A stretch of DNA of 64,000 nt from a virus. The notes below the pieces were generated by a model. The model searched no databases, was not told the DNA's origin, and worked only from the letters and a program-made list of their open reading frames with translations. Position numbers and translations under genes: made by a program. This document shows, one piece after another, positions 4,390 to 48,136 of the stretch; the first letter of the stretch is position 1, and every line of letters begins with the position of its first letter. The DNA lies in IMG/VR virus record IMGVR_UViG_3300009008_000005, positions 64,001 through 128,000 of that record; one strand, given 5' to 3'.

Positions 4390-4695
4390 ATGTCTGGATA
4401 CGTTGAGATCATGCAGCTCGGCCAAGAGCCCGTCAAGCTACGACTGGGCATGGGTGTATCGACCGCCCTCGAAGCCTACGAGAAAATCATCGGGATCGAT
4501 GGGGACCACTACCTCCTGTACTCCAGGGGGCTGGACAACATGGTGCCGATCCACTGGGACGACGCCCGGACGTTCCACCTCGAAGACAAGGATCATCTCA
4601 TCATCATGGTGCGGATCATGGGCTACCCGGAGGACTCGGAGAAGTTCGGAAAGACTCCCGCTCTTCGCAGACGGGATAAGGAGGTGATGCCATGA
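4390..4695 (+). CDS. Ubiquitin-like (beta-grasp) domain protein lacking di-Gly
   Basis: YVEIMQLGQEPVKL ... LEDKDHLIIMVRIMGY aligns by eye with the Ubl at 63774; GG replaced by GY. Confidence 0.5.
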   Translation: MSGYVEIMQLGQEPVKLRLGMGVSTALEAYEKIIGIDGDHYLLYSRGLDNMVPIHWDDARTFHLEDKDHLIIMVRIMGYPEDSEKFGKTPALRRRDKEVMP

Positions 4696-5033
4696 GCGGG
4701 GTAGTCAAAGTCTCGAAGATCGGGTGTCGCCCGATCAAGGTCGTGTGGAAACCGGGGATGACCGTCAGGGATGTCCTCCAGGCCATCCACGATGACCTCA
4801 ACCACCCCATGGACTACCACCTGGAGATCATGGGGCCGGACCGGGACAACCGGGGCCCCGTCCACTGGGACACGGTCGAAGAGCGGCCGGTGGTGGAGAA
4901 TGACCACCTGATCATCCATGGGCGCATGCTCGGGGATGGCCCCGGCGTCACGGAGTTCTACCGGAAGCAGGTCGAAAAGTACGGGCTCACCCCCGCACAG
5001 AAGGCAGACAGGAAGGGAGGGTACCATGCGTGA
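4692..5033 (+). CDS. Ubiquitin-like (beta-grasp) domain protein lacking di-Gly
   Basis: VKVSKIGCRPIKVVWKPGMTVRDVLQA ... VENDHLIIHGRMLGD; paralog of 4390..4695. Confidence 0.55.
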   Translation: MSGVVKVSKIGCRPIKVVWKPGMTVRDVLQAIHDDLNHPMDYHLEIMGPDRDNRGPVHWDTVEERPVVENDHLIIHGRMLGDGPGVTEFYRKQVEKYGLTPAQKADRKGGYHA

Positions 5034-24012: not shown

Positions 24013-24270
24013 TTAGAGAAAGGGGTGGTAGTTGCTTCCGTAGTTGTTCCAGTACATCTCTTCCTCCATCTCCTCGATGGTCAGCATGTTGCTGCCAGGC
24101 TGGGAGGAAACAGACGTCGAGCCCGGACCCCAAGAGCGGAGGATCCGACCCCCTGACTCCACAGGAGCCTTGTCCTTGGCCACCGACCCCGGGAACTTCA
24201 TCTTCTCCTTGAGGGTCTCCAAGTCACCCTCGGTCAGAGTGTGTTTCACCGCACCGACGATTCCGCTCAT
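24013..24270 (-). CDS. Hypothetical protein
   Basis: AGGAAAGG RBS; divergent from the lysin across a palindrome. Confidence 0.55.
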   Translation of the reverse strand: MSGIVGAVKHTLTEGDLETLKEKMKFPGSVAKDKAPVESGGRILRSWGPGSTSVSSQPGSNMLTIEEMEEEMYWNNYGSNYHPFL

Positions 24271-24284
24271 CCCTTTCCTCCTGA

Positions 24285-24299
24285 TATTTCGTTGAAATA
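24285..24299. promoter_or_regulatory. 15-bp palindromic operator upstream of the lysin
   Basis: TATTTCGTTGAAATA between divergent genes. Confidence 0.7.
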
Positions 24300-24357
24300 C
24301 TTGTCGAACACCCCCATTCAGGGCTACACTTCCCTTATACCAGTAAGGAGGTGTCCA

Positions 24358-25395
24358 ATGGTTCTGAAGCGAGGTTCCAAGGGAACAGAGGTAGAAAACT
24401 TACAAGACATGCTCAACCGTGCTGGCTACTCCACAGGTATTCCGGACGGTGATTTTGGGCCAATCACGGAAGCCGCTGTAGAGGCGTTCCAGAAGAAGCA
24501 TGGGCTTACGCCTGATGGTATCGTAGGTAAGCACACCTTCACGATGCTGGAGTGTACGCTCAACCAATCCGAACTGCACATCACCGATGACATCGTGGAT
24601 ACCTTCCACGAGGCAGTGGCCCTTGAAGACCAGATGCCTATCACGGAGACGGACAAGCGGATGTCTGCGGCCATCAAGCTCATGCAGACCTGTGACAACG
24701 GCCAGGGTTGTAGGTACGGTGGGTGGCCAAACCCCTACCAGTTTGACAAAGACCCCTTCAAGGAAGGCGATGTGTTCCCACTTCCGAGGGTTAGCCGGAT
24801 CGTGGAGGGGACCAAAGTAGTCCAGCCTGCTCACGGTGGGACGTGCTCCCCTTGGGGTGGCCTATTCTTGGGCTGGTGGCTCTGCACCAACCAGGACTAC
24901 AACTTCCGGATCGGCCGCAACGCCAGGTGGATGGCTACATGGCCCCATGACAAGGTCTATAAGGGCCAGGTAATCCCAGGGTATGGAGACTACTCCGAGG
25001 TTGAAGGAGTTCTCCGTCTGGAACACCACCCGCTGAATCTCCTCTACAAGAGCTGGGAGTGGCTCAACCAGGTGAACATCGTCGAGATGTCTCACCACGT
25101 CATCCTTATCCTCAAGGTCGGAGGGGAAGACGGGCTGCACCTGGAAGATCCCTACCTCCCTGGGACACCCGTCAGGTCAGGTCTTTATAGGCTCGCCGCA
25201 GACGGATATTACCCCCGCAGGGAAGGTAAGAAGTTCTACTCCGGGACCAAGCAGACCTTCCGCCTCGTGAAGAAGGTCGAGAAGACCACACAAGCCTGGG
25301 ATGTCTACAGGATCGCAGACAACCACCCCGACGACTGCTGCCCCACCTCCGGCCCGTGGGCTGGTCGCACACCTAGGACCCTCGGCCTAGAGTAG
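24358..25395 (+). CDS. Peptidoglycan-binding domain plus putative papain/NlpC-P60-like catalytic domain (endolysin candidate)
   Basis: LKRGSKGTEVENLQ ... DGDFGPITEAAVEAFQKKHGLTPDGIVG; GTCSPW and SHHVILI. Confidence 0.75.
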   Translation: MVLKRGSKGTEVENLQDMLNRAGYSTGIPDGDFGPITEAAVEAFQKKHGLTPDGIVGKHTFTMLECTLNQSELHITDDIVDTFHEAVALEDQMPITETDKRMSAAIKLMQTCDNGQGCRYGGWPNPYQFDKDPFKEGDVFPLPRVSRIVEGTKVVQPAHGGTCSPWGGLFLGWWLCTNQDYNFRIGRNARWMATWPHDKVYKGQVIPGYGDYSEVEGVLRLEHHPLNLLYKSWEWLNQVNIVEMSHHVILILKVGGEDGLHLEDPYLPGTPVRSGLYRLAADGYYPRREGKKFYSGTKQTFRLVKKVEKTTQAWDVYRIADNHPDDCCPTSGPWAGRTPRTLGLE

Positions 25396-25482
25396 TCTCT
25401 CCGGCTTCCTCCGTCACTTCTAATCCCGCAGATTCTGGCATAAGAAGACTGTAAGGGATCACCACAAATACGGAGGAACCGA

Positions 25483-26505
25483 ATGCCAATACAGGAAGCA
25501 GTTCAATCATCGAACATGCCTGCGGGCGCAACGGTGGCTTACAAGAGGGCCATCGAACTGCGTGACACCCTCATCGCCAACGGCATGCTCCGCCGTGTCA
25601 ACCTCACCCCGGATACCGATCCGAGGCGAGAAGGCGACAACGTCGGACCAGAGACGAACATGTTCCGCAACATCTACCCTTGGGGGGTTCACGGGACCGT
25701 CTCTGGTGTCGAGACCTACTTCACCCTGCCTAAGCTCCACTTCTTCAGCGCCGATCACGGCATGGTGTCGGACTACCTTCAGGTCATCGTCCTGGACGAG
25801 CTGCAGGGTACGATCACCAGCAAGTATGACTCCCGATGTGGCTTCCGCATCATCGGTGAACAAACCGGCGAGGCTGAGTACGCACACATCCTGAGGGCCA
25901 TCCTGGAAGGCCGGAAGGTAACGTACTCCGCAGGTCGGCGGAAGATCACCATCATCGGACAGGGGTCCTCCCCGGAGAACGAGGATTCCCGGGCCACGAC
26001 AGAGAACTTCGAGCGGAATCTCGTCTGGGTGTCGAGTGACTGCAGCTCCATTATCCGCCTGAAGGCTCCGAACTTCAGCCTAACGCCGGGTCAGCCTCTC
26101 ACGAGACCGTGGGACCGTTACCTGTGCTACAATCGCATGAGCGACCTGCCGAGGTCACGTCTTCCCTCCGAAAGTACCCGCATCGTGGAGCCCTTCCTCG
26201 ACAACGCCATCCCTGGGCGCAAGGGCATCACCGACCATGGATTCCACTGGGTCTGCCTCCCGCTCGTGTCTTGGGACTTCTGTGGGGTGATCGAGACCGA
26301 GCGGAAGGTCGTCTACCTCTGGAACGACTCGACCCGCAGCTTCTACACCCTCAGTGATGCCGCCGTGGCAGCGCCGACCCCCACCACTCCCTTCGACTTC
26401 GCAGGGCTCTACTACTTCCTGCGAGGTGACATCAGAAACTGCTCCATCAGTGGGCCCAGCAGGGACGAGGGCTTCCTCATCTGGAAGAACAGGGGGATAA
26501 GATGA
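25483..26505 (+). CDS. Hypothetical protein
   Basis: 340 aa, GGAGG RBS, ATAAGAA at 25440. Confidence 0.8.
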   Translation: MPIQEAVQSSNMPAGATVAYKRAIELRDTLIANGMLRRVNLTPDTDPRREGDNVGPETNMFRNIYPWGVHGTVSGVETYFTLPKLHFFSADHGMVSDYLQVIVLDELQGTITSKYDSRCGFRIIGEQTGEAEYAHILRAILEGRKVTYSAGRRKITIIGQGSSPENEDSRATTENFERNLVWVSSDCSSIIRLKAPNFSLTPGQPLTRPWDRYLCYNRMSDLPRSRLPSESTRIVEPFLDNAIPGRKGITDHGFHWVCLPLVSWDFCGVIETERKVVYLWNDSTRSFYTLSDAAVAAPTPTTPFDFAGLYYFLRGDIRNCSISGPSRDEGFLIWKNRGIR

Positions 26506-27596
26506 ATACGAACATGAACCACGCCGAATTCCACAAGTTCGGCCACAACCTGCTCCGGTACCTCACCAACGCCGGGGTGATGGAGAGGCACGACAGCAAG
26601 TACCCGGTGCCGGGTCCCCAGGAGAACCTGACGAGAAGCCCGTTCATGTCGGAGAACAAACGGCTCTACGGGACCTTCGGGCGGGATAGGAACGGGGTGC
26701 AGTACTTCATCCTCCCGATGTGCACCGTGAAGGACAAGAACGCAGGTTGGAGCCACGCCAACATGCCCGGGTTCATCCAGCTCTTCGTCTTCGACACGCC
26801 CGAATCCCCGCTCGACTGTGCGAGGTTCGACCCCAAGTACGGATACCGCATCCTCGTCGGGCACAACGACCTGTACACCCACGATGACATCTGGGATCTG
26901 GTGGACGTCCTGTCCCTGGGTGGGCAGATGCGCTTTCCTGTCCAGGATGGAAGCATCACGATCGAGAAGTACCTCAAGGAAACGTCGTCGCTGAAGGCGA
27001 AGAAGCCCGTCCTGAAGAAAGGTACGCCGGGGCTGAAGAAGACGAAGGTGCCTGAGATGACGCAGGAGGAGAAGGATGCGGACGAGTACCGGCGTCAGTA
27101 TGAGTTCTTCGCACACCGGAAGAACGAGGTCTACCCGCCCCCGCCCGAGCCCGAAGACGTCCGGGCGTACACCGAGCTTCGGGGGACACTGAGGGACAAC
27201 GTCCCCGACCGCCTCAAGCGGCTCGTCTTCCGTGTCTCCGACATCCTGCCTCCGCTCGGTGAGTTCCACGTGGGCGACTTCCTGAAAACTCCTCCGAATG
27301 GCTTCGGGGAACACCCCAATGGGAGTTCCTCGCTGCTCGTGCTCCCACTGCTCGACGTCACCGAACCCACCGGGAAGTCCTGCTGGAAGAACCTGAAGGC
27401 GTTTGTGAAGTTCAACAACCGGCTGAACGGCGTCGAGTTCTTCTCCGACGACTCTGTGAAGCTGCGGTTCCTCACCCCGGGCGACATGACCGACCTCGAA
27501 CGGGTCCTCCGTGGGACCATCGTCGAGGGGAAGTGCCACGGACTGATCCGGGGCGTGAACACCGCACTGACCTACAAGCTCGCCACATCCCTCTAG
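26502..27596 (+). CDS. Hypothetical protein
   Basis: 364 aa, ATGA overlap, high GC3. Confidence 0.8.
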   Translation: MNTNMNHAEFHKFGHNLLRYLTNAGVMERHDSKYPVPGPQENLTRSPFMSENKRLYGTFGRDRNGVQYFILPMCTVKDKNAGWSHANMPGFIQLFVFDTPESPLDCARFDPKYGYRILVGHNDLYTHDDIWDLVDVLSLGGQMRFPVQDGSITIEKYLKETSSLKAKKPVLKKGTPGLKKTKVPEMTQEEKDADEYRRQYEFFAHRKNEVYPPPPEPEDVRAYTELRGTLRDNVPDRLKRLVFRVSDILPPLGEFHVGDFLKTPPNGFGEHPNGSSSLLVLPLLDVTEPTGKSCWKNLKAFVKFNNRLNGVEFFSDDSVKLRFLTPGDMTDLERVLRGTIVEGKCHGLIRGVNTALTYKLATSL

Positions 27597-27693
27597 ACCC
27601 GCCAGCTCCCTCCTAAAATGCAGCGTCCGCTGCATTTTTATTACCTAAAACCGGGCATAAGAACAGTAGAGACCAAACCACCGTGGAGGTGCA

Positions 27694-27981
27694 ATGAAGA
27701 AACGTCTCATTTTGACTGCGATCCTGCTTGCGCTGCTGATCCTTCTCAGCTGGATCTGGGGTGCATTCAGAGGTCCGCTCGAAGGCGCTGCCGCTGTCGG
27801 CCAGCTCACGGATGACACGACAACATACGTGGCATCCAGAGCTATGGCGGAGGGTCTCATCGGCAAGGTACTGTTTCTGGTCCTGCTCTGCGGGCTCGTG
27901 GTGATCTGGTTCACCCAGCTCAAGGAAGGGGCCGTCAAGTTGGCTGCGAAGATTCGTGGCCGGAGGAGGAATCTGAAGTGA
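27694..27981 (+). CDS. Two-TM membrane protein
   Basis: Two hydrophobic helices; GGAGG RBS. Confidence 0.75.
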   Translation: MKKRLILTAILLALLILLSWIWGAFRGPLEGAAAVGQLTDDTTTYVASRAMAEGLIGKVLFLVLLCGLVVIWFTQLKEGAVKLAAKIRGRRRNLK

Positions 27982-28994
27982 AGAAGTACATTCTGCTCGC
28001 CGCCGTGTTCTCCATCGTCATCGCCGGGTGCCTGGGGCCCGCCGAGGTGCAGCCGATCGAGGAGATCGGTGCGAACGAGACCGCCTTCGTCATCCCCCTG
28101 GAGGGTGCGTCGAAGGACTCCCAGGGTCGGTTCATGTCCGAAGAGTTCCTCCAGGAGAACAAGGTGGCGGGCAAGCGAGTCGTGATCCCGGTCCGCAAGC
28201 GCAAGATCGGCCGGGGGTGGTGGAATTACGAGTGGATCCCCACGATCAAGGTGATCCGGGTGGACCGCACCCCGATCACCATGCGAGTGGACATCCCCGT
28301 GGAGAGCCGGGAGAGCATCGGCTTCAAGGTGGGCGTGAACTTCACAGGCGTCATCGAGGAAGACAACGCCGCCACGTATCTGTACTGGTACAACATCAAG
28401 CCGTTGGCGGAGGTGATGCAGACCAACGTCTACGGGCTGTTCCAGAAGGAGCTGTCCGCAGGCTTCGGGAAGCTGACCATCGATGAGTGCCGGGAGCAGA
28501 AGATCGACGTGGTCAACGGAGCCTCCGAGACCGTCAAGACCTTCTTCGCAGGGAAGGGGATCACCATGCTCAACATCGGACAGGCGGAAGGCCTGACCTA
28601 TGTGAGCCAAGATCTCCAGGACTCCATCGACAACGCCTACATCGCCAACCGGAAGCTCGAACGGGCACAGGTCGATGCCGACACGGTGAAGATCCAGGCG
28701 GCAGGTGATGCGGCGGCGAAGATCGAGACTGCCAAGGGCGATGCGGAGGCTGTGCGAATCGCAGCCGCTGCTGAGGCAGAGGCGAACATCAAGGTCGCCG
28801 CCTCGATCACCCCGGAGTTGGCCCTCTGGCATGGCGTGAAGAAGTGGGGTGGCATGCTGCCGATCACCCTCATGCTGAGCGGCGGGATCGACGGGGGCTA
28901 TGACGAGGTGCTGGATATGAGCACCTTCATCCCCGACCACCAGCCGTCTCCCGCACAGCCGGAACCGGAACCGCTAGCAGGTGGCACCCTGTAG
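27978..28994 (+). CDS. SPFH/Band-7-like lipoprotein
   Basis: Lipobox IAGC, SPFH-like core, AEAEA-type coiled-coil tail. Confidence 0.7.
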   Translation: MKKYILLAAVFSIVIAGCLGPAEVQPIEEIGANETAFVIPLEGASKDSQGRFMSEEFLQENKVAGKRVVIPVRKRKIGRGWWNYEWIPTIKVIRVDRTPITMRVDIPVESRESIGFKVGVNFTGVIEEDNAATYLYWYNIKPLAEVMQTNVYGLFQKELSAGFGKLTIDECREQKIDVVNGASETVKTFFAGKGITMLNIGQAEGLTYVSQDLQDSIDNAYIANRKLERAQVDADTVKIQAAGDAAAKIETAKGDAEAVRIAAAAEAEANIKVAASITPELALWHGVKKWGGMLPITLMLSGGIDGGYDEVLDMSTFIPDHQPSPAQPEPEPLAGGTL

Positions 28995-29020: not shown

Positions 29021-29042
29021 AAAGGGGCTTCGGCCCCTTTTT
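29021..29042 (+). terminator. Intrinsic terminator abutting the next promoter motif
   Basis: AAAGGGGC-TTCG-GCCCCTTTTT then GGTATAAGAAG. Confidence 0.8.
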
Positions 29043-29078
29043 AGGTATAAGAAGATTGAACCCTAAATAGGAGGTGAC

Positions 29079-29624
29079 ATGGACTTCGAGGAACTTCGCA
29101 AAGACGTGGTCGGCACCATGCAGGTCCGACAACTCACACCAACAACGTCAGGTTTCGTCTTCCAGACGGAACCCCTCTACACGGACTACGAGGGAGTGCT
29201 CTACGACCTCGGAGCCATGACTGTGGACATCAACCTGAAGAATAGCATCGTGCGGGTGTCTTCGGACACTACTCCTGAGGGGGAGAGTCCACACCCCCAC
29301 GCAGATCCCTATGGCGTCCTAGACATGGGATACCACGGAATCGTCCTGTGGGAGTGTATCAGCAGCGGGGAATACAGGTCTGCTGTCCAGCTGCTCCTCG
29401 ATATCCTCACAAATATCACCGACGACATCACATACAGGTCCATAAAAGAGTGGCCCAAGATCGAACCGAACCCGGACGGGCTCAAAATGCTCCGTGTCAT
29501 CCAAGCCCTGGCGAACGTCACAGTGCAGGTCCAGCCTGCCGCCGTTTCACAGGAGGAGTGGGAGGCCATGAGCCGGTATGAGAAATCACAGTGGTGGCTC
29601 AACTGGGCGATGGAGCGGAGCTGA
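29079..29624 (+). CDS. Prokaryotic E2/UBC-like protein, catalytic Cys replaced by Asp
   Basis: YDLGAMTVDI ... PHPHADPYGVLDMG ... AVQLLLDIL ... YRSIKEWP. Confidence 0.55.
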   Translation: MDFEELRKDVVGTMQVRQLTPTTSGFVFQTEPLYTDYEGVLYDLGAMTVDINLKNSIVRVSSDTTPEGESPHPHADPYGVLDMGYHGIVLWECISSGEYRSAVQLLLDILTNITDDITYRSIKEWPKIEPNPDGLKMLRVIQALANVTVQVQPAAVSQEEWEAMSRYEKSQWWLNWAMERS

Positions 29625-29696
29625 GGGAAAAGGTACGGGCCCGTAGGGGCCCTACCTTTTTAGGTATAAGAAGAGTAGTCAATCAGGAGGAAGCAC

Positions 29697-30446
29697 ATGA
29701 ACCGATATAAGATTCAGAGACAACTGCAGAAGGCCTTCAGCGGGAGAGGACCGGTGAAGAGCCTCACGTTCCCCAGTGACAGTCGCATCATCTTCAAGAC
29801 GAAAGTCATTCCCATCGTCGCAGATGGGATCACCCACAAGCTTGGCCCCTACACCGTCGAGATCGACCTAGAATGGAGGGAGGTAAAGCTCCTCACGGAC
29901 AACGACTACGACGGCTACGACTACGTAGGTACGCACCCTCACGACGACGGCGGAGGTATGTGCATGGGGAATGGGACCCACCTCTTCAAGACCCTCCTGG
30001 ATGAGAGAAAGTTCGAAGAGGCTATCCAACTCCTCCTGGTCCACATGCGGACCTGGACTCCGAGTGACGACATGGTACCCCTGTGGGTCTGGGGTGGGGT
30101 CGCACCCATGGACTTCATGACCGACAGGTTCTGCGACGAATACTGGCCCATACCGCTTCATCGCATCCCGAAAATGAATGGGAGTATCGTCTTCCCAAAG
30201 TTGCGCTCGGATCCCAACGATGTCGAGGTGGAGCACTTCACCCTACTCGGCGACGTGAGTGAGGAAGTCTATAGCGGTGGTGACACCGCCTTCATCCGAT
30301 TCGTTCGCAACACCAAAGCACGGAGAGCCACCGCAGAAGTGTTCGACCGGAAGACTCCCGGTGGTCCACTCAAGGCGTGGAAGCGCTTCTGCATGGGTGC
30401 CGAAGCTTGGGGCGAAACCTGGACCTCAAGGAGGGCTTACATATGA
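29697..30446 (+). CDS. Prokaryotic E2/UBC-like protein with catalytic Cys
   Basis: HKLGPYTVEI ... THPHDDGGGMCMGNG ... AIQLLLVHMRTW. Confidence 0.6.
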   Translation: MNRYKIQRQLQKAFSGRGPVKSLTFPSDSRIIFKTKVIPIVADGITHKLGPYTVEIDLEWREVKLLTDNDYDGYDYVGTHPHDDGGGMCMGNGTHLFKTLLDERKFEEAIQLLLVHMRTWTPSDDMVPLWVWGGVAPMDFMTDRFCDEYWPIPLHRIPKMNGSIVFPKLRSDPNDVEVEHFTLLGDVSEEVYSGGDTAFIRFVRNTKARRATAEVFDRKTPGGPLKAWKRFCMGAEAWGETWTSRRAYI

Positions 30447-30847
30447 CCGTGTGCAATAAAACTGATCTCACGAAGCTGCAGACCCTCGCACAGGACGTGC
30501 AGCAGCTGGTCGAGCAGTACTTCGATACGTACTGCAAGGCGGGCGATCCCTACACCACTGAGGTAAGGAGCCTTCTGGAGAATTTTCTCACTCTGTACCT
30601 CCAGGATGGCGAAGGCAGCATCTACCTCGGAATCGGACAGGGTCCGGACCCCTCCGTCGTCGAAGTGTGGCCCTCCGGGGATGCGTCCTTCTCGAAGCTG
30701 AACGACCTCTGCGACCTGCCCATCGGCGCACGGTGGGCTTTCCATATTCCGTCCGAACTCTTCAGCCCGAACTGTCGGCCTGGGTACGGGTACACCGATA
30801 ACAAACCGTACATCCCGGCCTGCTACAGTGGAGGAGAAATAGTATGA
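30443..30847 (+). CDS. Hypothetical protein (paralog family RWxFxIP)
   Basis: KLNDLCDLPIGARWAFHIPSEL. Confidence 0.7.
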   Translation: MTVCNKTDLTKLQTLAQDVQQLVEQYFDTYCKAGDPYTTEVRSLLENFLTLYLQDGEGSIYLGIGQGPDPSVVEVWPSGDASFSKLNDLCDLPIGARWAFHIPSELFSPNCRPGYGYTDNKPYIPACYSGGEIV

Positions 30848-31221
30848 GCAATGAACTCTGCAAACTCCAGGTGTTCGCAGGAGGCCTGCGGCAGCACTTG
30901 AAGGCCTTCGCAGGAACCTTCTCCGCCAAGTACCGACCGTCCAGCTACCAGATCCGAACCTCTGCGGAGGCGTACTTCCGCAAGTCGTTCCCCGGCAACC
31001 TGCTCCCCGCTGTCTGCGGGGTGTCGATGTCCACATATGCTGGTGATCCGAACATGTTCGAACTCTACCCCGCCACCGAGCCAGGGGCGGCGAAAGTCAA
31101 CAAGATCCTCGGCCTCCCCCACGAGGCAAGGTGGACCATCGTGCTCCCCAGGACCATCCTGGAGGCCAACCCGATCCTGGGTGCGCCAAGATCTGGATTC
31201 GGACGGGTGCGTGGTCCGTAG
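30844..31221 (+). CDS. Hypothetical protein (paralog family RWxFxIP)
   Basis: KVNKILGLPHEARWTIVLPRTIL. Confidence 0.7.
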   Translation: MSNELCKLQVFAGGLRQHLKAFAGTFSAKYRPSSYQIRTSAEAYFRKSFPGNLLPAVCGVSMSTYAGDPNMFELYPATEPGAAKVNKILGLPHEARWTIVLPRTILEANPILGAPRSGFGRVRGP

Positions 31222-32853: not shown

Positions 32854-33162
32854 TCATGGTTCCTCTCCCCGAAGCTCTGCAGGGATACTGAACATCCAGC
32901 GGGTGTTGGCCGGTCTTCCCGACCACTTGTTGAGGATCACGAAGCTCTCCATGTTGCGAGGCATGATATCAAGCCTTCCGTCCAAATCCGAAGGCATGAC
33001 GCACACCCGAACACGGGCCTTCTTGTCCTTGACCTTATGGCGGAGGATGTTCTCGATCACGGGACGGAACATCTCGAATGGTACAGGTGAGCGGAGAGCA
33101 GCGACCCTCGTCTCCAACTCCGTCTGTACCTCGACAGCCAACTCCGAGTACTTCTCTATCAT
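32854..33162 (-). CDS. Hypothetical protein (paralog family RWxFxIP)
   Basis: ILNKWSGRPANTRWMFSIPAEL; GGAG RBS. Confidence 0.65.
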   Translation of the reverse strand: MIEKYSELAVEVQTELETRVAALRSPVPFEMFRPVIENILRHKVKDKKARVRVCVMPSDLDGRLDIMPRNMESFVILNKWSGRPANTRWMFSIPAELRGEEP

Positions 33163-42435: not shown

Positions 42436-42788
42436 CGGTTGCTCTCCAAAACTTGCCACGCCGAATACATGGACTTGCGGAAGTCATCAGCGGCCTTGAT
42501 GAGGTTGTCGGCATCAAAGCGCAGGTACCATCTTTCCCGGAGTCTGCCCTTACGCAGGTACAGCCTCTTGCATATGTGCAGGCTGTATCCTCGTAGGTCT
42601 GAGAGGAGTATCTCACAGATGTAGGTCCAGCGCTTTTCTGCCCGGGGATAGAGCTGGAACTCGAAGAAGCCTTCCCCGATGTAGCCAGAGTACACCTCCA
42701 CACCGAGGTCTCTAAAAGTGTATGATACACCAAGGAAAGCCCCCTCTACGTCATTCCGTACTGGCGGGGGTTTCCACTCGCTCCGCAT
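42432..42788 (-). CDS. Hypothetical protein
   Basis: GGGGAG RBS, operon fit. Confidence 0.6.
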   Translation of the reverse strand: MRSEWKPPPVRNDVEGAFLGVSYTFRDLGVEVYSGYIGEGFFEFQLYPRAEKRWTYICEILLSDLRGYSLHICKRLYLRKGRLRERWYLRFDADNLIKAADDFRKSMYSAWQVLESNR

Positions 42789-43335
42789 TCGGAACTCCCC
42801 CTTCGACTTGGAACCCATAAATCCCCTGCACGTCATTCATGCAGCACACGGAGTCGACAGCCATCCCGCAGAGAACCATACCTTTAGCCACGGCAGGTGT
42901 TTCCATGATCTGGCCACCTAGGAACGTCTCCTCTGAGTGCCTACCTATGTTCTTCAGGATGCTCTTGTCTTCTACGAACACGTGAGAGATCCGGAACCCT
43001 TGCTCTTCAGCATAGAGGACTGTCCTAAGGATCTTCTCGTGAAGCGTCATCTCGTTATCGACCATCCTGATGGGTACTAGCCTTAGAACCTCTTCGGGTG
43101 TGAATGTCTCCTCGACCCGCTCCTTGAAGTCCGGGTCACCAGGTCTCTGTAAGTGCTTTACCCTGATGGGACTGTTCGCCTCGAAAGCGATAGCGATCAC
43201 CAGGGGCTGCGAGAGCACACGTCGAAAAGCCCGTACAACAGCGTCCACTGTGGGCTTCTCTGGTAGCTCTACGTCTACCGTTAGAACCTTCGGCGTCATC
43301 AGCTCACTCTGGAGCCTCTTATCGCCTGTGTTCAT
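42751..43335 (-). CDS. Hypothetical protein
   Basis: Operon fit. Confidence 0.65.
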   Translation of the reverse strand: MNTGDKRLQSELMTPKVLTVDVELPEKPTVDAVVRAFRRVLSQPLVIAIAFEANSPIRVKHLQRPGDPDFKERVEETFTPEEVLRLVPIRMVDNEMTLHEKILRTVLYAEEQGFRISHVFVEDKSILKNIGRHSEETFLGGQIMETPAVAKGMVLCGMAVDSVCCMNDVQGIYGFQVEGGVPNAERVETPASTE

Positions 43336-43675
43336 AGTCCCCACCATCCCTAAAGGCGTGTGCGTAGTAGGTCTTGGGCTCAGTCTCCCCTTGTAGGAGA
43401 GTCCACGCTTCCTCGATCTGTAGCATAGGGTCCGTTCTCAACAGGTTGGCTACACGTTCCCCTTGAGGCCGCATGCTCTCCGCATACTTACGCTCTAGAG
43501 GGATCGGGTACATCTGCGTACCGCAGAAGCAAGGGTCCTCTGGCGAGGCTACCTTACGCAGCCTGTAGCACACAGGACACCTCCACTCCACACGCTTCTC
43601 ACCGGACTCGAACCCGAATGCATCGGACTTAGAGAACCGGGAGAAGGCGTCACCTGTCTCCCAGAACTCTTTCAC
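43319..43675 (-). CDS. Zn-ribbon protein
   Basis: CPVC ... CFCG. Confidence 0.65.
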   Translation of the reverse strand: MKEFWETGDAFSRFSKSDAFGFESGEKRVEWRCPVCYRLRKVASPEDPCFCGTQMYPIPLERKYAESMRPQGERVANLLRTDPMLQIEEAWTLLQGETEPKTYYAHAFRDGGDYEHRR

Positions 43676-44070
43676 GGCTTGTGCAGCCCCAGCGGTGGAA
43701 TCCCATATCCATCAGAGAGCAGATTCCCGTCTGGGTCCCTAGCCTCCTCAATGGCGATCCCGTGCCTTACCTCTGCGACCTCTTTCGCCATGCGCTCCTG
43801 GAGCTGGTCCACTGCGCTTTGGACCGGGTCTTCTTCCTCTTCGAACGCATTCGGGTCCCGGTCGTACTCCTCGAAGTCCGGCTCTGCTGGTTCTTCAGGT
43901 GCTGTGCCAGCAGGGGCCATGAGAGAGTCGAGATGATGGAGCATCTCTTGGACGGTCTCAACAGCCGTTAGGATAGAGAATGTCATCCCACCGATGGTGA
44001 TGACTATTTCGCCGAAATAGTCGCCCTTCTCGGGGATGAAGGTGATGGATAGTTTCTCTAGAGTGATCAT
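43672..44070 (-). CDS. Acidic hypothetical protein
   Basis: GGGAGG RBS; contains a coding copy of the palindrome. Confidence 0.7.
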   Translation of the reverse strand: MITLEKLSITFIPEKGDYFGEIVITIGGMTFSILTAVETVQEMLHHLDSLMAPAGTAPEEPAEPDFEEYDRDPNAFEEEEDPVQSAVDQLQERMAKEVAEVRHGIAIEEARDPDGNLLSDGYGIPPLGLHKP

Positions 44071-44072
44071 CG

Positions 44073-44429
44073 CTAACCTCCCTTATTGGACCGCTCGTAC
44101 TCGATCTTTAGCTGCTTCCAAGCCTCTTCCTGGTCTGGAAGCTCTCCACTGCTTCCGGAGAAAGCCGCAGGGGTCAAGTGAACCTCAAGGTTACCGAGTT
44201 CCTTCAACGTGTCCTCCTTGAGCTTCTCGACCTCTTCCTCATTGCTCTCCGTGAACGGGAGACGTGCTGCCACGTACTCCTTCAACATCTCCCTAGCAGC
44301 CTGCTCATTACCGAGAGCAGCCTCCATGAGGAGGGTAGTCTTGAGCACCTCAGAGCGCTCCTCCCTCTGCACCACGCCCAGCATCATGCTCTCTTGGATC
44401 GAGCCCGCCGGAGGGGTATGAGGATACAT
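44073..44429 (-). CDS. Tail assembly chaperone extension (GT-like), reached by -1 frameshift
   Basis: -1 frame is open from the slippery site: KWVSSPGGWWRLRLWRSMYPHTPPAGS... Confidence 0.6.
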   Translation of the reverse strand: MYPHTPPAGSIQESMMLGVVQREERSEVLKTTLLMEAALGNEQAAREMLKEYVAARLPFTESNEEEVEKLKEDTLKELGNLEVHLTPAAFSGSSGELPDQEEAWKQLKIEYERSNKGG

Positions 44430-44470
44430 GGAGCGCCAGAGCCGGAGACGCCACCACCCTCCCGGCGAGC

Positions 44471-45046
44471 TTACCCATTTTTTACTTCACCGAGCATGTA
44501 CATCTCGTGCGCACGGTTCAGGAACCACCCGTACTGCAGGAAGACATGCCCTAGCGCCGTCATAGGCATCGAACGCCGGAGGAGACGCAGCTTTGCGAAG
44601 ACACTGTCGTCATCAATGACGTCGGTCTCCTTGTCCACAATGATCTGAGGCAGTGGGAACTCCTTACCGCCTACATGCAACTCCACGATCCCGAAGGTCA
44701 GCTGGAAGTTCCTGTAGCGAGAGTTCACGTACGCCTGTGCCTTACCCATGGAAGATGACAGGTGCTCATTGACCCACTCCTCTTCCTCACCGTTCATGGT
44801 CTGGAAGACCACACGGATCTGCTTGGAGGCAACGACATCCTGCTTGATGTGGCCGTTGATGAGGTCTCCGAAGTCGAAGGAGACATTCTTGTCCGCCTCC
44901 TTCTTCTCCTCCTCAATCTTCTTGGCGGCACCAAGGTCTACATCAGATCCAAGGCCCAGGACAGATAGCGCCTTTGCGATCTCTTCCGGATCCTCCTCAC
45001 GGGGGACGTCCTTCGGGGGTACTTTGGCTTTATCTTCGCCAGCCAT
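44471..45046 (-). CDS. Tail assembly chaperone (G-like)
   Basis: Ends GTA AAA AAT GGG TAA (A_AAA_AAT slippery heptamer) with a downstream hairpin. Confidence 0.6.
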   Translation of the reverse strand: MAGEDKAKVPPKDVPREEDPEEIAKALSVLGLGSDVDLGAAKKIEEEKKEADKNVSFDFGDLINGHIKQDVVASKQIRVVFQTMNGEEEEWVNEHLSSSMGKAQAYVNSRYRNFQLTFGIVELHVGGKEFPLPQIIVDKETDVIDDDSVFAKLRLLRRSMPMTALGHVFLQYGWFLNRAHEMYMLGEVKNG

Positions 45047-45333
45047 TAGTCCTCCTCCCCTTCACGCATCTTACGGGCCTGCTCCAGCTTGTGCCTCACA
45101 GAGGAGACCAGCCACTTCGACGGGGTGTCGAGGGTAAGGTCGCTCGTGGGGATCAGGAAGAGGTTCCCGTTAGGGAATACGACCGCCATACGGCGCTTCG
45201 GCTTTGCATCACCCTCCGTGAAGGTGAGCATCATCCACTTTGCCTCTTCGAGGTGAATCAGCTCGTTCCGCCCGAAGCCCTCTTCTTCGAACTTCACGGC
45301 ATCCATGTTCTTGGGATCTACGACCTTAGCCAT
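45046..45333 (-). CDS. Hypothetical protein
   Basis: AAAGGAG RBS; frame is open to 45549. Confidence 0.6.
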   Translation of the reverse strand: MAKVVDPKNMDAVKFEEEGFGRNELIHLEEAKWMMLTFTEGDAKPKRRMAVVFPNGNLFLIPTSDLTLDTPSKWLVSSVRHKLEQARKMREGEED

Positions 45334-45572
45334 CTTGCTCTCCTTTCTGCGTGCACATGCAGCGCAGTAGTCCAACGTAATACAAACCGCTACGTCTAAC
45401 GGTTCTTGCAGCCCAATGTCCGTAATGACGCTGGGGTGCTGACAGTACCGCTCCCTCCGTTCGATGTCTCCCCCGAAGATGCAATCGACTTCCGACCTCT
45501 TGATCGGCGGTAGGGAACGATTGCTTCTTTTGGCGGGCGGAGCTTCCACGTGCTACCTCCACAACAGCGCAT

Positions 45573-46253
45573 TCATTCACCCTTTTCCTCTCTGTACAAT
45601 TCCCACGTACACAAAGCCTCAACCGGCTGTGAAGTGGGATTTTCGACAACCACTGTGTACTTCCCTGCGTCTAGCCTAGTCCGCAACTCGTGGGCTCCAA
45701 TAGAAGCACCATGCCGCTCCCCGGACTTGTAGGCCTCGAATCCCTCAGCACCTCCATGGATGCATCGAAGCTGTAAGAAAGGAGGATGGGCCATCACGGA
45801 TATGCTGAAGTCTACGGGATGGTCAATCACCCACACTACAGCATTTCCCTCCGTGGGCACCTCCACGGAGACCTCATCCGAAGCGAAGAGCTTACTCACG
45901 GGGCCCGGTACCATGCTCTTGGGCCCTACGACGATGAAGTTCCCTCGCTCAGAGCCTCTCATAGCGACCTTGTCCGAGACCCTTCGCATAGAGGCGATGG
46001 AGAACAGTGCGGCGTTGTAGGTGTTCACACTACAATCCCCACCAAGTTGCATGAGGAACGTCCGTTCGTCATCCACGACCATATCGAGTATTTCGCCGAA
46101 ATAGTCTAGGATGGACTGGTCGAGGTTCTCCATGTCAGTCCATAAAGACTGAAAGGCCTCCCCCGATATTTCCGTCCCCAGGAAGGCTTTCTTCACCTCG
46201 AACGTCCCCAACTCCTCCTTCACGAACGCCACTTTCCTCTCTGTCTGTTCCAT
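45573..46253 (-). CDS. Hypothetical protein
   Basis: GGAGAAGG RBS; contains a coding copy of the palindrome. Confidence 0.65.
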   Translation of the reverse strand: MEQTERKVAFVKEELGTFEVKKAFLGTEISGEAFQSLWTDMENLDQSILDYFGEILDMVVDDERTFLMQLGGDCSVNTYNAALFSIASMRRVSDKVAMRGSERGNFIVVGPKSMVPGPVSKLFASDEVSVEVPTEGNAVVWVIDHPVDFSISVMAHPPFLQLRCIHGGAEGFEAYKSGERHGASIGAHELRTRLDAGKYTVVVENPTSQPVEALCTWELYREEKGE

Positions 46254-46713
46254 CCCTTCTCCTTCGGATGCGTTCCAGTCTAGACATATCTGAGCCTGGA
46301 AGGTTACTTATGTCATAGCCGCCTGAGGCTGTCTCTTTGATGTCTTCACGCTGGGCCTGCCTACGAGCCCAGCCTCGCACGATGTACCCAAGGCAGAACA
46401 TCTTGGCCTCTGCGGGGGACAAGTGCTGGATGAGGTCTGCGTCCACTCCGCATTGTGTCATGCTTCTAGTGACGGACTGCTTCATAGGAAGCGTCCACTC
46501 ATCGTCCATGGCCCTCTCTATGGCCTGGATCTGCTCTGCGGTGAACGTCTCGGGTATCTCAATGATGGGCATCTGATCTATGGCCTCCTCGACGTACTGC
46601 ATGAATAGATCGTCCTCTACAGCCCTGATCTCCTCTGCGGCATCGTCTGTTATGTCGGCCCATAGGTCATCCCTCTCAGCCCTGTAGAAGGTCTTAAACA
46701 GCTCGTCAGTCAA
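46135..46713 (-). CDS. Acidic protein with SRLERIRRRR motif
   Basis: TTG start; operon fit. Confidence 0.55.
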   Translation of the reverse strand: MTDELFKTFYRAERDDLWADITDDAAEEIRAVEDDLFMQYVEEAIDQMPIIEIPETFTAEQIQAIERAMDDEWTLPMKQSVTRSMTQCGVDADLIQHLSPAEAKMFCLGYIVRGWARRQAQREDIKETASGGYDISNLPGSDMSRLERIRRRRDGTDREESGVREGGVGDVRGEESLPGDGNIGGGLSVFMD

Positions 46714-46960
46714 TAGGGATCCTCATGCCTTCACTTACCTTATCCCACGAGCCATCCGCACCCCTGTCCACGAATCTATGGTCAGGATCATCAGGGGACA
46801 GAGTCGAACCGAACACGGCGGTCCACACCCTCTCCCTAATCTCCTTCGACTCCAGGAGCCTCTGCGCATACTTCAGAGACCTGTGATTCATGTTGTCCTT
46901 GAGGAGTGAGGCAATCATCTGAATTCCCAGTTCCTCTAGCGCTTCCGTGTCTAGGGTCAT
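46706..46960 (-). CDS. Hypothetical protein
   Basis: GGAGG RBS. Confidence 0.65.
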   Translation of the reverse strand: MTLDTEALEELGIQMIASLLKDNMNHRSLKYAQRLLESKEIRERVWTAVFGSTLSPDDPDHRFVDRGADGSWDKVSEGMRIPID

Positions 46961-47310
46961 TGTTTCCTCCTACTCTTCAGGCGCTCTAAACGGCTACCTG
47001 TCGGCTTGTCGACGAACTGGTCTTCGATTACCTTCGTGTAGGTTCCCTTATTGAGCATCTCAGAGCCCCAGCCCCTCACAAGAAATCCGACAATAAAGGC
47101 CTGTAGCTGCTTTAGGTTCCCACGAAAGTGGTGGAGGACATTCTCTTCGATACTGTTCGCATCTAATGCATCCATGCAAAGGACTAAGAGCTTGTCGTAG
47201 TCCTTGCACTCCATGATCTTCTCGACCAAGGGGAGTCTCAGGTGATGAGGAGTCAGCTTAGACACCTTTCTTTTAGGTGCAGGCCCACTCCAGGCATCCA
47301 TTCTAGCCAC
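46957..47310 (-). CDS. Hypothetical protein ending GSRLERLKSRRKQ
   Basis: Coupled start/stop. Confidence 0.7.
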   Translation of the reverse strand: MARMDAWSGPAPKRKVSKLTPHHLRLPLVEKIMECKDYDKLLVLCMDALDANSIEENVLHHFRGNLKQLQAFIVGFLVRGWGSEMLNKGTYTKVIEDQFVDKPTGSRLERLKSRRKQ

Positions 47311-47534
47311 TACTGCGTGTCCTCATCCCATTCGGTGATAGCCGCCATGAGGTTAGGGTTAAAGATCATGGCCTGGCACAGAGTACTCTCTACCGGACCG
47401 TGTCTATTCGTGGCCTTTACCTGGAGAGGTGTCCCATGCGGGTCGTAGCCCTGGTCCATGGACTTACTCACTAGCTCCGCTAGATGCTTCGGCCCTCTCC
47501 CTTCGAGGAGTATATAGGCTTGTTTACGCTTCAT
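47310..47534 (-). CDS. DUF1737-like small protein
   Basis: LAELVSKSMDQGYDPHGTPL ... LCQAMI pattern. Confidence 0.5.
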   Translation of the reverse strand: MKRKQAYILLEGRGPKHLAELVSKSMDQGYDPHGTPLQVKATNRHGPVESTLCQAMIFNPNLMAAITEWDEDTQ

Positions 47535-47618
47535 CTTGCTTCTCCTGCAATCGTTCAACTAGCACACCAATGCACTCTGGGCAGACATCCGTACGGGACT
47601 TCCTGGTACGAAGGATCA

Positions 47619-47831
47619 TCAGTGTACACCCTTCAGCGTAGCCCGAATCTCGTCTAGGCGCTCTAGGAGGATACGGTCCGCCTCTTCGGCGAGGTCTCCA
47701 TCATCACATTCGAAGATGGTGGAGATTCCCAGATTCGTCTGGAGCCGCCATTTCCCTCCAAAGGGACACAGCGTAACGGTGTCGTTACCCAGCTTACGCT
47801 GAAAGACGTCTCCTTCCTTTGTCCAGCTCAC
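47619..47831 (-). CDS. Hypothetical protein
   Basis: Operon fit. Confidence 0.6.
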   Translation of the reverse strand: MSWTKEGDVFQRKLGNDTVTLCPFGGKWRLQTNLGISTIFECDDGDLAEEADRILLERLDEIRATLKGVH

Positions 47832-48136
47832 GGAGTCCCACCTTCCATCTTCAGCTGGCCGAACTTGCGGGCTAGGGCCTTGTCCATGTCGACCCCAATG
47901 CGTCCCCCGATCTCAAGGGTTAGAACCATGATGGAGGCCAAAGTGTCCTCAGCGTCTGTCATTGGGGAGTCTTTCATCCGCTGGGGGCTAGCCATACATG
48001 CGTAGAGCCTCGAAGTCCTCTGTACGAGTCTCATGCAGGCATGTGCAGGAGTTTCGATGGTCTTCCACCATCCCTTACTGTGACAGAGGACCTTTATCTC
48101 CTCTGCCCAGCCTTGCAACGTAGCCGGATTAGGCAT
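47828..48136 (-). CDS. MazG-fold protein with degenerate acidic motif
   Basis: LQGWAEEIKVLCHSKGWW ... EDTLASIMVLTL ... GVDMDKALARK. Confidence 0.5.
   Translation of the reverse strand: MPNPATLQGWAEEIKVLCHSKGWWKTIETPAHACMRLVQRTSRLYACMASPQRMKDSPMTDAEDTLASIMVLTLEIGGRIGVDMDKALARKFGQLKMEGGTP

Follow-up and report, generated by a model that had tools for sequence, protein, structure and literature searches.

Two stand-alone E2-like paralogs in a large phage genome, one with cysteine and one with aspartate at the catalytic position

Canonical ubiquitin-conjugating (UBC-type, or E2) enzymes carry the signature H-P-N-[IV]-x3-G-x-[IV]-C-L, and the ubiquitin E2 variants (UEVs) have the same fold without the catalytic cysteine; UEVs form stable heterodimers with an active cognate E2, as Mms2/Uev1A does with Ubc13, and bind ubiquitin or its relatives non-covalently. 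In prokaryotes, the conjugation of ubiquitin-like proteins (Ubls) has been studied as bacterial anti-phage defence, as in the Bil systems and in CBASS with its Cap2, and the bacterial conjugation systems are such defences (PMC10557695; 10.1101/2023.09.04.556158). The Bil systems, BilABCD of types I and II, are classes 6d and 6c of Iyer et al. 2006 (PMC1779556; Chambers et al., PMC10557695). Their E2 has a catalytic Cys and a conserved downstream His with no HPN-like motif upstream, and their activating enzyme (E1) is a multidomain protein with a Cys domain (PMC10557695, PMC1779556). Inactive, RWD-like proteins of the E2 fold are found in bacterial Ubl operons of class 6e (Iyer et al. 2006, PMC1779556). 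Here, it is a virus that carries the machinery, and in several copies. In the 64,000-nucleotide stretch that was analysed (the window; positions 64001–128000 of the 180,825-bp IMG/VR virus record IMGVR_UViG_3300009008_000005, CheckV completeness 99%), two adjacent open reading frames, ORF-A and ORF-B, encode stand-alone E2-like proteins, one of which has aspartate where the other has the cysteine.

ORF-A (29079–29624, + strand) encodes 181 residues and ORF-B (29697–30446, + strand) 249, in agreement with a first-pass annotation that had read from the sequence two tandem E2-like genes at 29079–30446, one catalytic and one a pseudo-E2. The two proteins are clear paralogs: BLASTP aligns them with 30% identity over 108 residues (E = 5e-10), a similarity far above chance. 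All of the motifs that had been quoted as shared are present, namely LGAMTVDI in ORF-A and LGPYTVEI in ORF-B, DMG and CMG, AVQLLL and AIQLLL, and HPH in both (nt 29292–29300 and 29934–29942, respectively). The active-site stretch is HPHADPYGVLDMG in ORF-A and HPHDDGGGMCMG in ORF-B, and Asp82 of the former (nt 29322–29324) aligns on Cys89 of the latter (nt 29961–29963), so that at the level of sequence the division into a catalytic and a pseudo-E2 stands. Besides HPH, ORF-A retains the Gly at +2, the LLL helix and the Trp; with Asp82 in the catalytic-Cys column it is a candidate non-catalytic E2 variant. The E2-like domain of ORF-B occupies residues 1–135 (29697–30101). The remaining ~115 residues (136–249; 30102–30446) are private to ORF-B and have no recognisable family, scans of Pfam, PHROGs, NCBIfam and PADLOC being empty for this region.

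The predicted structures place both proteins in the UBC fold. The AlphaFold2 model of full-length ORF-A has a predicted local distance difference test score (pLDDT) of 86.6, with domain blocks of 92–97, and that of ORF-B, made for residues 1–135 only, has a pLDDT of 76 and a predicted template modelling score of 0.74; both run helix, beta-meander, loop, helices. With the ORF-A model the top 50 Foldseek matches are all E2s (best E = 6.9e-3, probability 0.99), and with the ORF-B model the matches are weak (E at least 0.12) and mostly E2s. Comparison by VIA-align with 48,161 representative chains gave UBE2S as the best match to ORF-A (1zdn_A; Z 8.0, root-mean-square deviation 2.9, 109 residues) and UBE2E1 as the best match to ORF-B (3bzh_A; Z 7.8, root-mean-square deviation 3.0, 105 residues). 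The list for ORF-B is nearly pure UBC-superfold (E2, UEV, RWD, Atg10, UFC1, Cap2 and Bub) and that for ORF-A is similar, nearly all of the best 45–50 structural matches of each model belonging to this superfold. Within these lists Cap2 and Bub score below the eukaryotic E2s.

A sequence comparison led to the same enzymes. When a profile of 20 family sequences was compared with all PDB sequences, 17 of the 19 matches at E ≤ 10 were E2s, the top one being UBE2L3 (E = 2e-4). Over ~110 positions of this match HPH falls on HPN and the Cys on the catalytic Cys86, the Gly before the Cys is shared, and the spacing is equal. Because the structural Z-scores by themselves are middling, the E2 case rests on the uniform fold lists together with this motif-exact sequence match. 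Of the features that characterise an E2, the predicted UBC fold of N-terminal helix, antiparallel sheet, active-site loop and C-terminal helices and the HPN-type motif ~9–10 residues ahead of the catalytic position (as HPH) are found in both proteins, and the Cys in the catalytic column in ORF-B only; the UEV feature of a UBC fold with no catalytic Cys is found, by sequence and model, in ORF-A. We regard the E2-like reading of both proteins as well supported. It would not have emerged from domain libraries: Pfam gives no match at E ≤ 10 for ORF-A, ORF-B or a third, 520-residue paralog described below, scans of PHROGs, NCBIfam and PADLOC with ORF-A and ORF-B gave none either, and only one of 60 family relatives matches the Pfam E2 model UQ_con, at a below-threshold E of 0.0027.

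The relatives form a large family. A word-indexed search with ORF-B found no sequence but ORF-B itself, and relatives emerged only when 1.84 billion cluster representatives (clusters at 50% identity) were searched exhaustively with a profile built from the three paralogs; 2,060 proteins matched at E ≤ 1e-3, of which 101 reached E ≤ 1e-10. Among the GenBank phages there was no match to the locus by blastn, nor by tblastn to the domain of the 520-residue paralog or to P0016, a mainstream member of the family. Conservation was counted over 154 domains from the best 150 of the 2,060 matches: the residues of HPH are kept in 152, 154 and 150 of the 154 domains, the Cys in 151 and the Gly at +2 in 152. 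The motif H-P-H-[VI]-x(3-6)-C-[LFW]-G-N is thus almost invariant in these 150 proteins, and it reads as the canonical E2 signature with His in place of Asn. The first-pass annotation had let the assignment stand or fall with the UBC fold and with conservation of HPH and Cys in homologs; both held, since the predicted folds are UBC-like and these residues are almost invariant among the relatives. No Pfam, NCBIfam, PHROG or PADLOC model represents this HPH-type domain, and in the literature searched, which could not be everything published, we found no description of an HPH-type E2 family or of a phage-borne form.

Only three of the 154 domains lack the Cys. ORF-A is one of these and alone has Asp in this column. 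Several members have two fused domains, the N-terminal copy without and the C-terminal copy with the Cys (P0021, P0042, P0092 and two proteins of phage contig G002, positions 38001–48000), examples of the Cys-less copies being HPYIYPEGRPRRP and HPSVDESGNPVFQ. We considered whether a Cys-less N-terminal copy is a general trait of the long cassette E2s and, judged by sequence, rejected this: iterated hidden Markov model searches found it in 3/106 N-terminal regions and in ~5/150 proteins. A tandem E2-like pair in another phage, G004, has the Cys in both copies, and other phages of 90–230 kb have 2–4 E2-like copies beside their E1. A tree of 147 domains puts the 520-residue paralog in a mainstream clade and places ORF-A and ORF-B, each on a long branch, in a group that it does not resolve, including any sister relation between the two.

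The third paralog links the family to a complete set of Ubl genes in the same genome. It lies just past the end of the window, has 520 residues with HPHVSGGRVCWGN and a Cys-rich tail, and is the second gene of a cassette in the order Ubl, 520-residue E2-like protein, JAB, E1. The first gene, on the + strand at 63786–63986, encodes a ThiS-type Ubl of 66 residues that ends in VEGG-TSV (PF02597, E = 8.2e-7). The JAB protein has 401 residues, an intact JAMM signature (E...HSH-x7-S-x2-D) and weak matches to Prok-JAB and to the PADLOC JAB model, and the E1 is a 241-residue, single-domain protein of the ThiF type (PF00899, 1.4e-22). Beyond the E1 are three genes of unknown function, a ParB-like gene and a gene for a Cdc48-like AAA ATPase (PF00004, 1e-21); the cassette through to this ATPase occupies positions 127786–136988 of the record, that is, from 63786 of the window onward, 34 kb downstream of ORF-A and ORF-B.

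This linkage is a property of the family. Using a degenerate DNA pattern for HPHVxxxGxPCLGN we located further members on nine IMG/VR contigs and 28 stretches of metagenome-assembled genomes (MAGs). At 30 of the 37 loci, phage and MAG together, a JAB gene lies directly 3' of the E2-like gene, mostly together with a mini-E1 and an upstream Ubl gene, and the other seven are clipped or have no downstream coverage. The MAG stretches come from Myxococcota, Planctomycetota, Gammaproteobacteria, phyla of the candidate phyla radiation and Chloroflexota, and as the Ubl–E2–JAB–mini-E1 cassette is found on long MAG contigs, the HPH-type family appears not to be confined to phages; the MAG copies may be chromosomal, prophage or mis-binned phage DNA.

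The explanation that we favour, and consider probable if by no means certain, takes ORF-A and ORF-B for divergent paralogs of the cassette E2 that stand alone: ORF-B would be an accessory E2 that the cassette E1 charges, and ORF-A a variant without catalytic activity. In such a pathway the JAB peptidase would trim the TSV tail of the Ubl and so expose its Gly-Gly, the ThiF-type E1 would adenylate the Ubl, and an E2-like protein would then take over the Ubl as a thioester on the Cys of its HPH...C loop and hand it on to targets. ORF-B could be a second, accessory E2 with targets or partners of its own because its loop is intact (Cys89) and because it has its private C-terminal region, which may serve in target recognition. 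The likeliest partners, whether ORF-B works with them or on them, would be the two small proteins of 134 and 125 residues whose genes are translationally coupled to it. ORF-A could not carry a thioester, since it has Asp at the Cys position, and its intact, confidently folding UBC domain with HPH suggests instead a non-catalytic E2 variant that might act as a Ubl binder, regulator or adaptor. What we infer in this account is the charging of ORF-B by so distant an E1, as well as the targets and whatever ORF-A may do.

Several observations weigh against it. ORF-A and ORF-B lie 34 kb from the E1, and they are long-branch members of the family without orthologs. The HPH-to-Cys loop of ORF-B lacks one residue relative to the form most often seen in the family, and around its Cys ORF-B reads GGGMCMG where the consensus is PCLGN. 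No Pfam UQ_con or Prok-E2 (Prok-E2_A-E) model scores above threshold for either protein, the structural Z-scores of 7.8–8.0 can be reached by chance according to the warning issued with the tool, and the case as a whole is built from sequence and structure models.

The surroundings of the two genes bear on how they might work together. The same elements stand upstream of each: a GC hairpin and T-run, a 20-mer, CCTTTTTAGGTATAAGAAGA, that does not differ between the two, and AGGAGG 6–7 nt from the ATG, all on the + strand. Before ORF-A the terminator-like hairpin (GGGGC-TTCG-GCCCC, 29024–29043) lies 3' of an upstream gene of 338 codons and is followed by the promoter-like motif GGTATAAGAAG within the 20-mer (29044–29054) and by the Shine–Dalgarno sequence (29069–29074). 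Between ORF-A and ORF-B there is a second terminator-like hairpin (GGGCCC-GTAG-GGGCCC, 29637–29659), then the second copy of GGTATAAGAAG (29663–29673) and the Shine–Dalgarno sequence of ORF-B (29685–29690). With a promoter-like motif on one side and a hairpin on the other, ORF-A looks monocistronic. ORF-B is followed by an orphan gene for the 134-residue protein (30443–30847, + strand), the ATG of which overlaps the ORF-B stop codon (ATGA) in an arrangement typical of translational coupling, and, after a second ATGA overlap, by a gene for its 125-residue paralog (30844–31221, + strand; E = 1e-11). Then come a hairpin and another GGTATAAG motif. There is a third copy of this orphan family at 32854–33231 on the − strand (E = 2e-9), and the three proteins (about 125–134 residues) share ...P...N...P..ARW..IP; a profile search of databases returned only themselves. 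The 134-residue protein ends in ...YSGGEIV, and the ESM Atlas gave no usable match to it or to the C-terminal region of ORF-B. Synteny comparison with three other large phages found no homologs of the genes neighbouring ORF-A and ORF-B.

The first-pass annotation had given each gene a promoter cassette of its own. The shared sequence cassette is real and promoter-like, but it does not belong exclusively to these genes. The 181-kb genome has 17 copies of its core, ATAAGAAG, where base composition predicts 3.4, and nine of the 17 have a Shine–Dalgarno sequence and a start codon 31–57 nt downstream, so that it is a genome-wide promoter-like element. In the window it is found at 2475, 4357, 23420, 25440, 29047, 29666, 49921, 57118 (with one mismatch) and 63692, usually after a GC hairpin and on the + strand, with the extended consensus GGYATAAGAAGAKTGRAYCC. 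Among the nine are the copies that precede ORF-A, ORF-B and two small paralogous genes at 4390–5033. The Ubl gene at 63786 has a further copy ~90 nt ahead of it, one not scored by the rule of Shine–Dalgarno plus start, and the motif is thus common to the upstream regions of ORF-A, ORF-B and the Ubl cassette. We found no promoter of the sigma-70 type. The pattern suggests that the copies mark one temporal class of genes, and they are possibly read by an RNA polymerase of the phage itself.

Two other groups of genes were noted in the course of this analysis. The small paralogous genes just mentioned (4390–4695 and 4692–5033, + strand; 33% identity, E = 2e-14), which lie behind a ATAAGAAG motif, both encode ...DHLII..R[IM][ML]G followed by a tail, and a Pfam scan of the two proteins gave no beta-grasp match. 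Upstream of ORF-A an envelope-related block (24241–28994, + strand) includes a PG_binding_1 protein (E = 3.7e-21), a membrane protein of 95 residues, two weakly paralogous orphans of 340 and 364 residues (E = 0.002) and the 338-residue protein, whose N-terminus, MKKYILLAAVFSIVIAGC, resembles a lipoprotein signal.

The adjacency of ORF-A and ORF-B on one strand, with a shared promoter-like cassette and the dead copy preceding the live one, would also be expected of a UEV-type pair, an obligate heterodimer in which ORF-A directs how or where ORF-B transfers the Ubl. The few relatives that fuse a Cys-less and a Cys-bearing copy in the matching order give a hint of the Rosetta-stone type in the same direction, but they amount to ~5/150 proteins and need not be orthologs of ORF-A and ORF-B, and the tandem pair of phage G004 has the Cys in both copies. 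The layout of the locus does not favour such a pair either, as between the two genes a terminator-like hairpin is followed by a new promoter-like motif, and ORF-B is coupled by ATGA overlaps to two other genes; HPH, moreover, is kept in ORF-A. Complex prediction for full-length ORF-B with ORF-A, using alignments, gave an interface score (ipSAE) of 0.00 in both runs, which, there being no controls, is evidence neither for nor against. We judge an obligate pair unlikely. That ORF-A is simply a decaying duplicate without function, only ORF-B being of consequence, would account for the lost nucleophile, the long branch, the lack of orthologs and its place among the 3/154 Cys-less domains, but a gene in decay would hardly be expected to have an intact frame of 181 codons, a strong Shine–Dalgarno sequence, its own promoter-like motif and a terminator, or to encode a domain modelled in blocks of 92–97 with HPH, Gly(+2), the LLL helix and the Trp all in place, and we think this quite improbable.

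A role in counter-defence has to be weighed too, since bacterial Ubl conjugation is an anti-phage defence (PMC10557695; 10.1101/2023.09.04.556158) and a Cys-less E2 resembles what would be expected of a dominant-negative trap: ORF-A, ORF-B or both might mimic E2s and trap or misdirect a host defence of the Bil or CBASS Cap2/Cap3 type, instead of working in the phage's pathway. That the two genes are orphan, fast-evolving and separately promoted would suit decoys. They belong, however, to the E2 family of the phage's own cassette and not to the Bil or Cap2 types, their models fit canonical E2s better than Cap2 or Bub, and the E2s to be mimicked in Bil have a Cys and a downstream His with no HPN-like motif upstream; decoys therefore seem very unlikely to us. 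Least probable of all, we believe, is that HPH and the Cys or Asp bind a metal, in which case the domain would be no thioester carrier and ORF-A would not be dead. His/His/Asp can indeed stand in for His/His/Cys as ligands, a change from Cys to Asp being conservative for a metal site and not for a thioester nucleophile, and at the position of the HPN Asn in canonical E2s this family has His. Against a metal site are the residue-for-residue alignment with HPN...Cys of UBE2L3 at canonical spacing, the locking of the HPH-type family to E1, Ubl and JAB genes, and the fact that Asp in the Cys column is a single case in 154 domains. Accessory paralogs of the cassette E2 thus remain the explanation that we prefer for ORF-A and ORF-B.

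What is new here is a pair of stand-alone paralogs, one live and one dead, of an undescribed and canonical-looking E2 family in a phage-encoded Ubl system. The family is large (>2,000 clusters at 50% identity), it is not in the family libraries searched, and its active-site motif is canonical almost letter for letter. It is conceivable, and we put it forward tentatively with more doubt than conviction, that large phages run a Ubl system of their own with a diversified set of E2s (one in the cassette, a solo accessory enzyme equipped with its own target module, and a dead one resembling a UEV), and that the HPH family is an unrecognised close viral or prokaryotic relative of eukaryotic-type E2s. 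If this were true, the phage set would parallel the radiation of E2s and UEVs in eukaryotes. The genome offers a compact test set of three E2-like proteins with a single Ubl and a single small E1, and it opens the questions of what phages tag, whether different paralogs choose different targets and whether regulation by pseudo-E2s has arisen outside eukaryotes.

Among the described prokaryotic systems, the PRTRC cassette (NCBIfam TIGR03734/TIGR03736) resembles this phage in bringing together ThiF, JAB, E2-like and ParB genes. The phage E1 and ParB match the PRTRC models (1.7e-11 and 43.9 bits for E1, cut-off 144.75; 9.8e-12 and 44.2 bits for ParB, cut-off 278.6) far below the curated cut-offs, however, and no Prok-E2 model matches the E2-like proteins. 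Class 6e provides a precedent for dead E2-fold proteins that accompany prokaryotic Ubl systems, but these are of a different family and are encoded within the operon; ORF-A, by contrast, stands alone at a distance of 34 kb from the cassette. The Bil systems are closer in gene order, the cassette of the 520-residue paralog matching their Ubl–E2–JAB–E1 arrangement with a Ubl tail that JAB could trim after the Gly. The phage cassette differs in having HPH upstream of the Cys, a single ThiF-domain E1 of 241 residues and a long N-terminal region in its E2. Bil serves bacteria as a defence; the HPH-type system, in contrast, is found on phages as well as in MAGs, and ORF-A and ORF-B stand outside any cassette.

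Like the UEVs (Mms2/Uev1A with Ubc13, and Tsg101), ORF-A has a UBC fold without the catalytic Cys and adjoins a Cys-bearing paralog, but unlike them it keeps HPH, and ORF-A and ORF-B lie in separate blocks that resemble transcription units. Its nearest relatives are the HPH-type E2-like proteins of phages and MAGs, and the loss of Cys took place independently within the phage family and not by descent from the eukaryotic UEV lineages. With the canonical UBC-type E2s (UBE2L3/UbcH7, UBE2S and UBE2E1; UQ_con, PF00179) the HPH-type family shares the predicted fold, the motif spacing and the linkage to E1, Ubl and JAB genes. It departs from them in having His for the Asn of HPN and an invariant Gly-Asn in the stretch after the Cys (C-[LFW]-G-N), in being borne by phages and MAGs, and in its E1 partner, which is a 241-residue single-domain ThiF protein and not a multidomain E1. 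By sequence motif and by predicted structure, the HPH-type domain is nearer to the canonical E2s than to the E2-like domains of Bil, Bub or Cap2.

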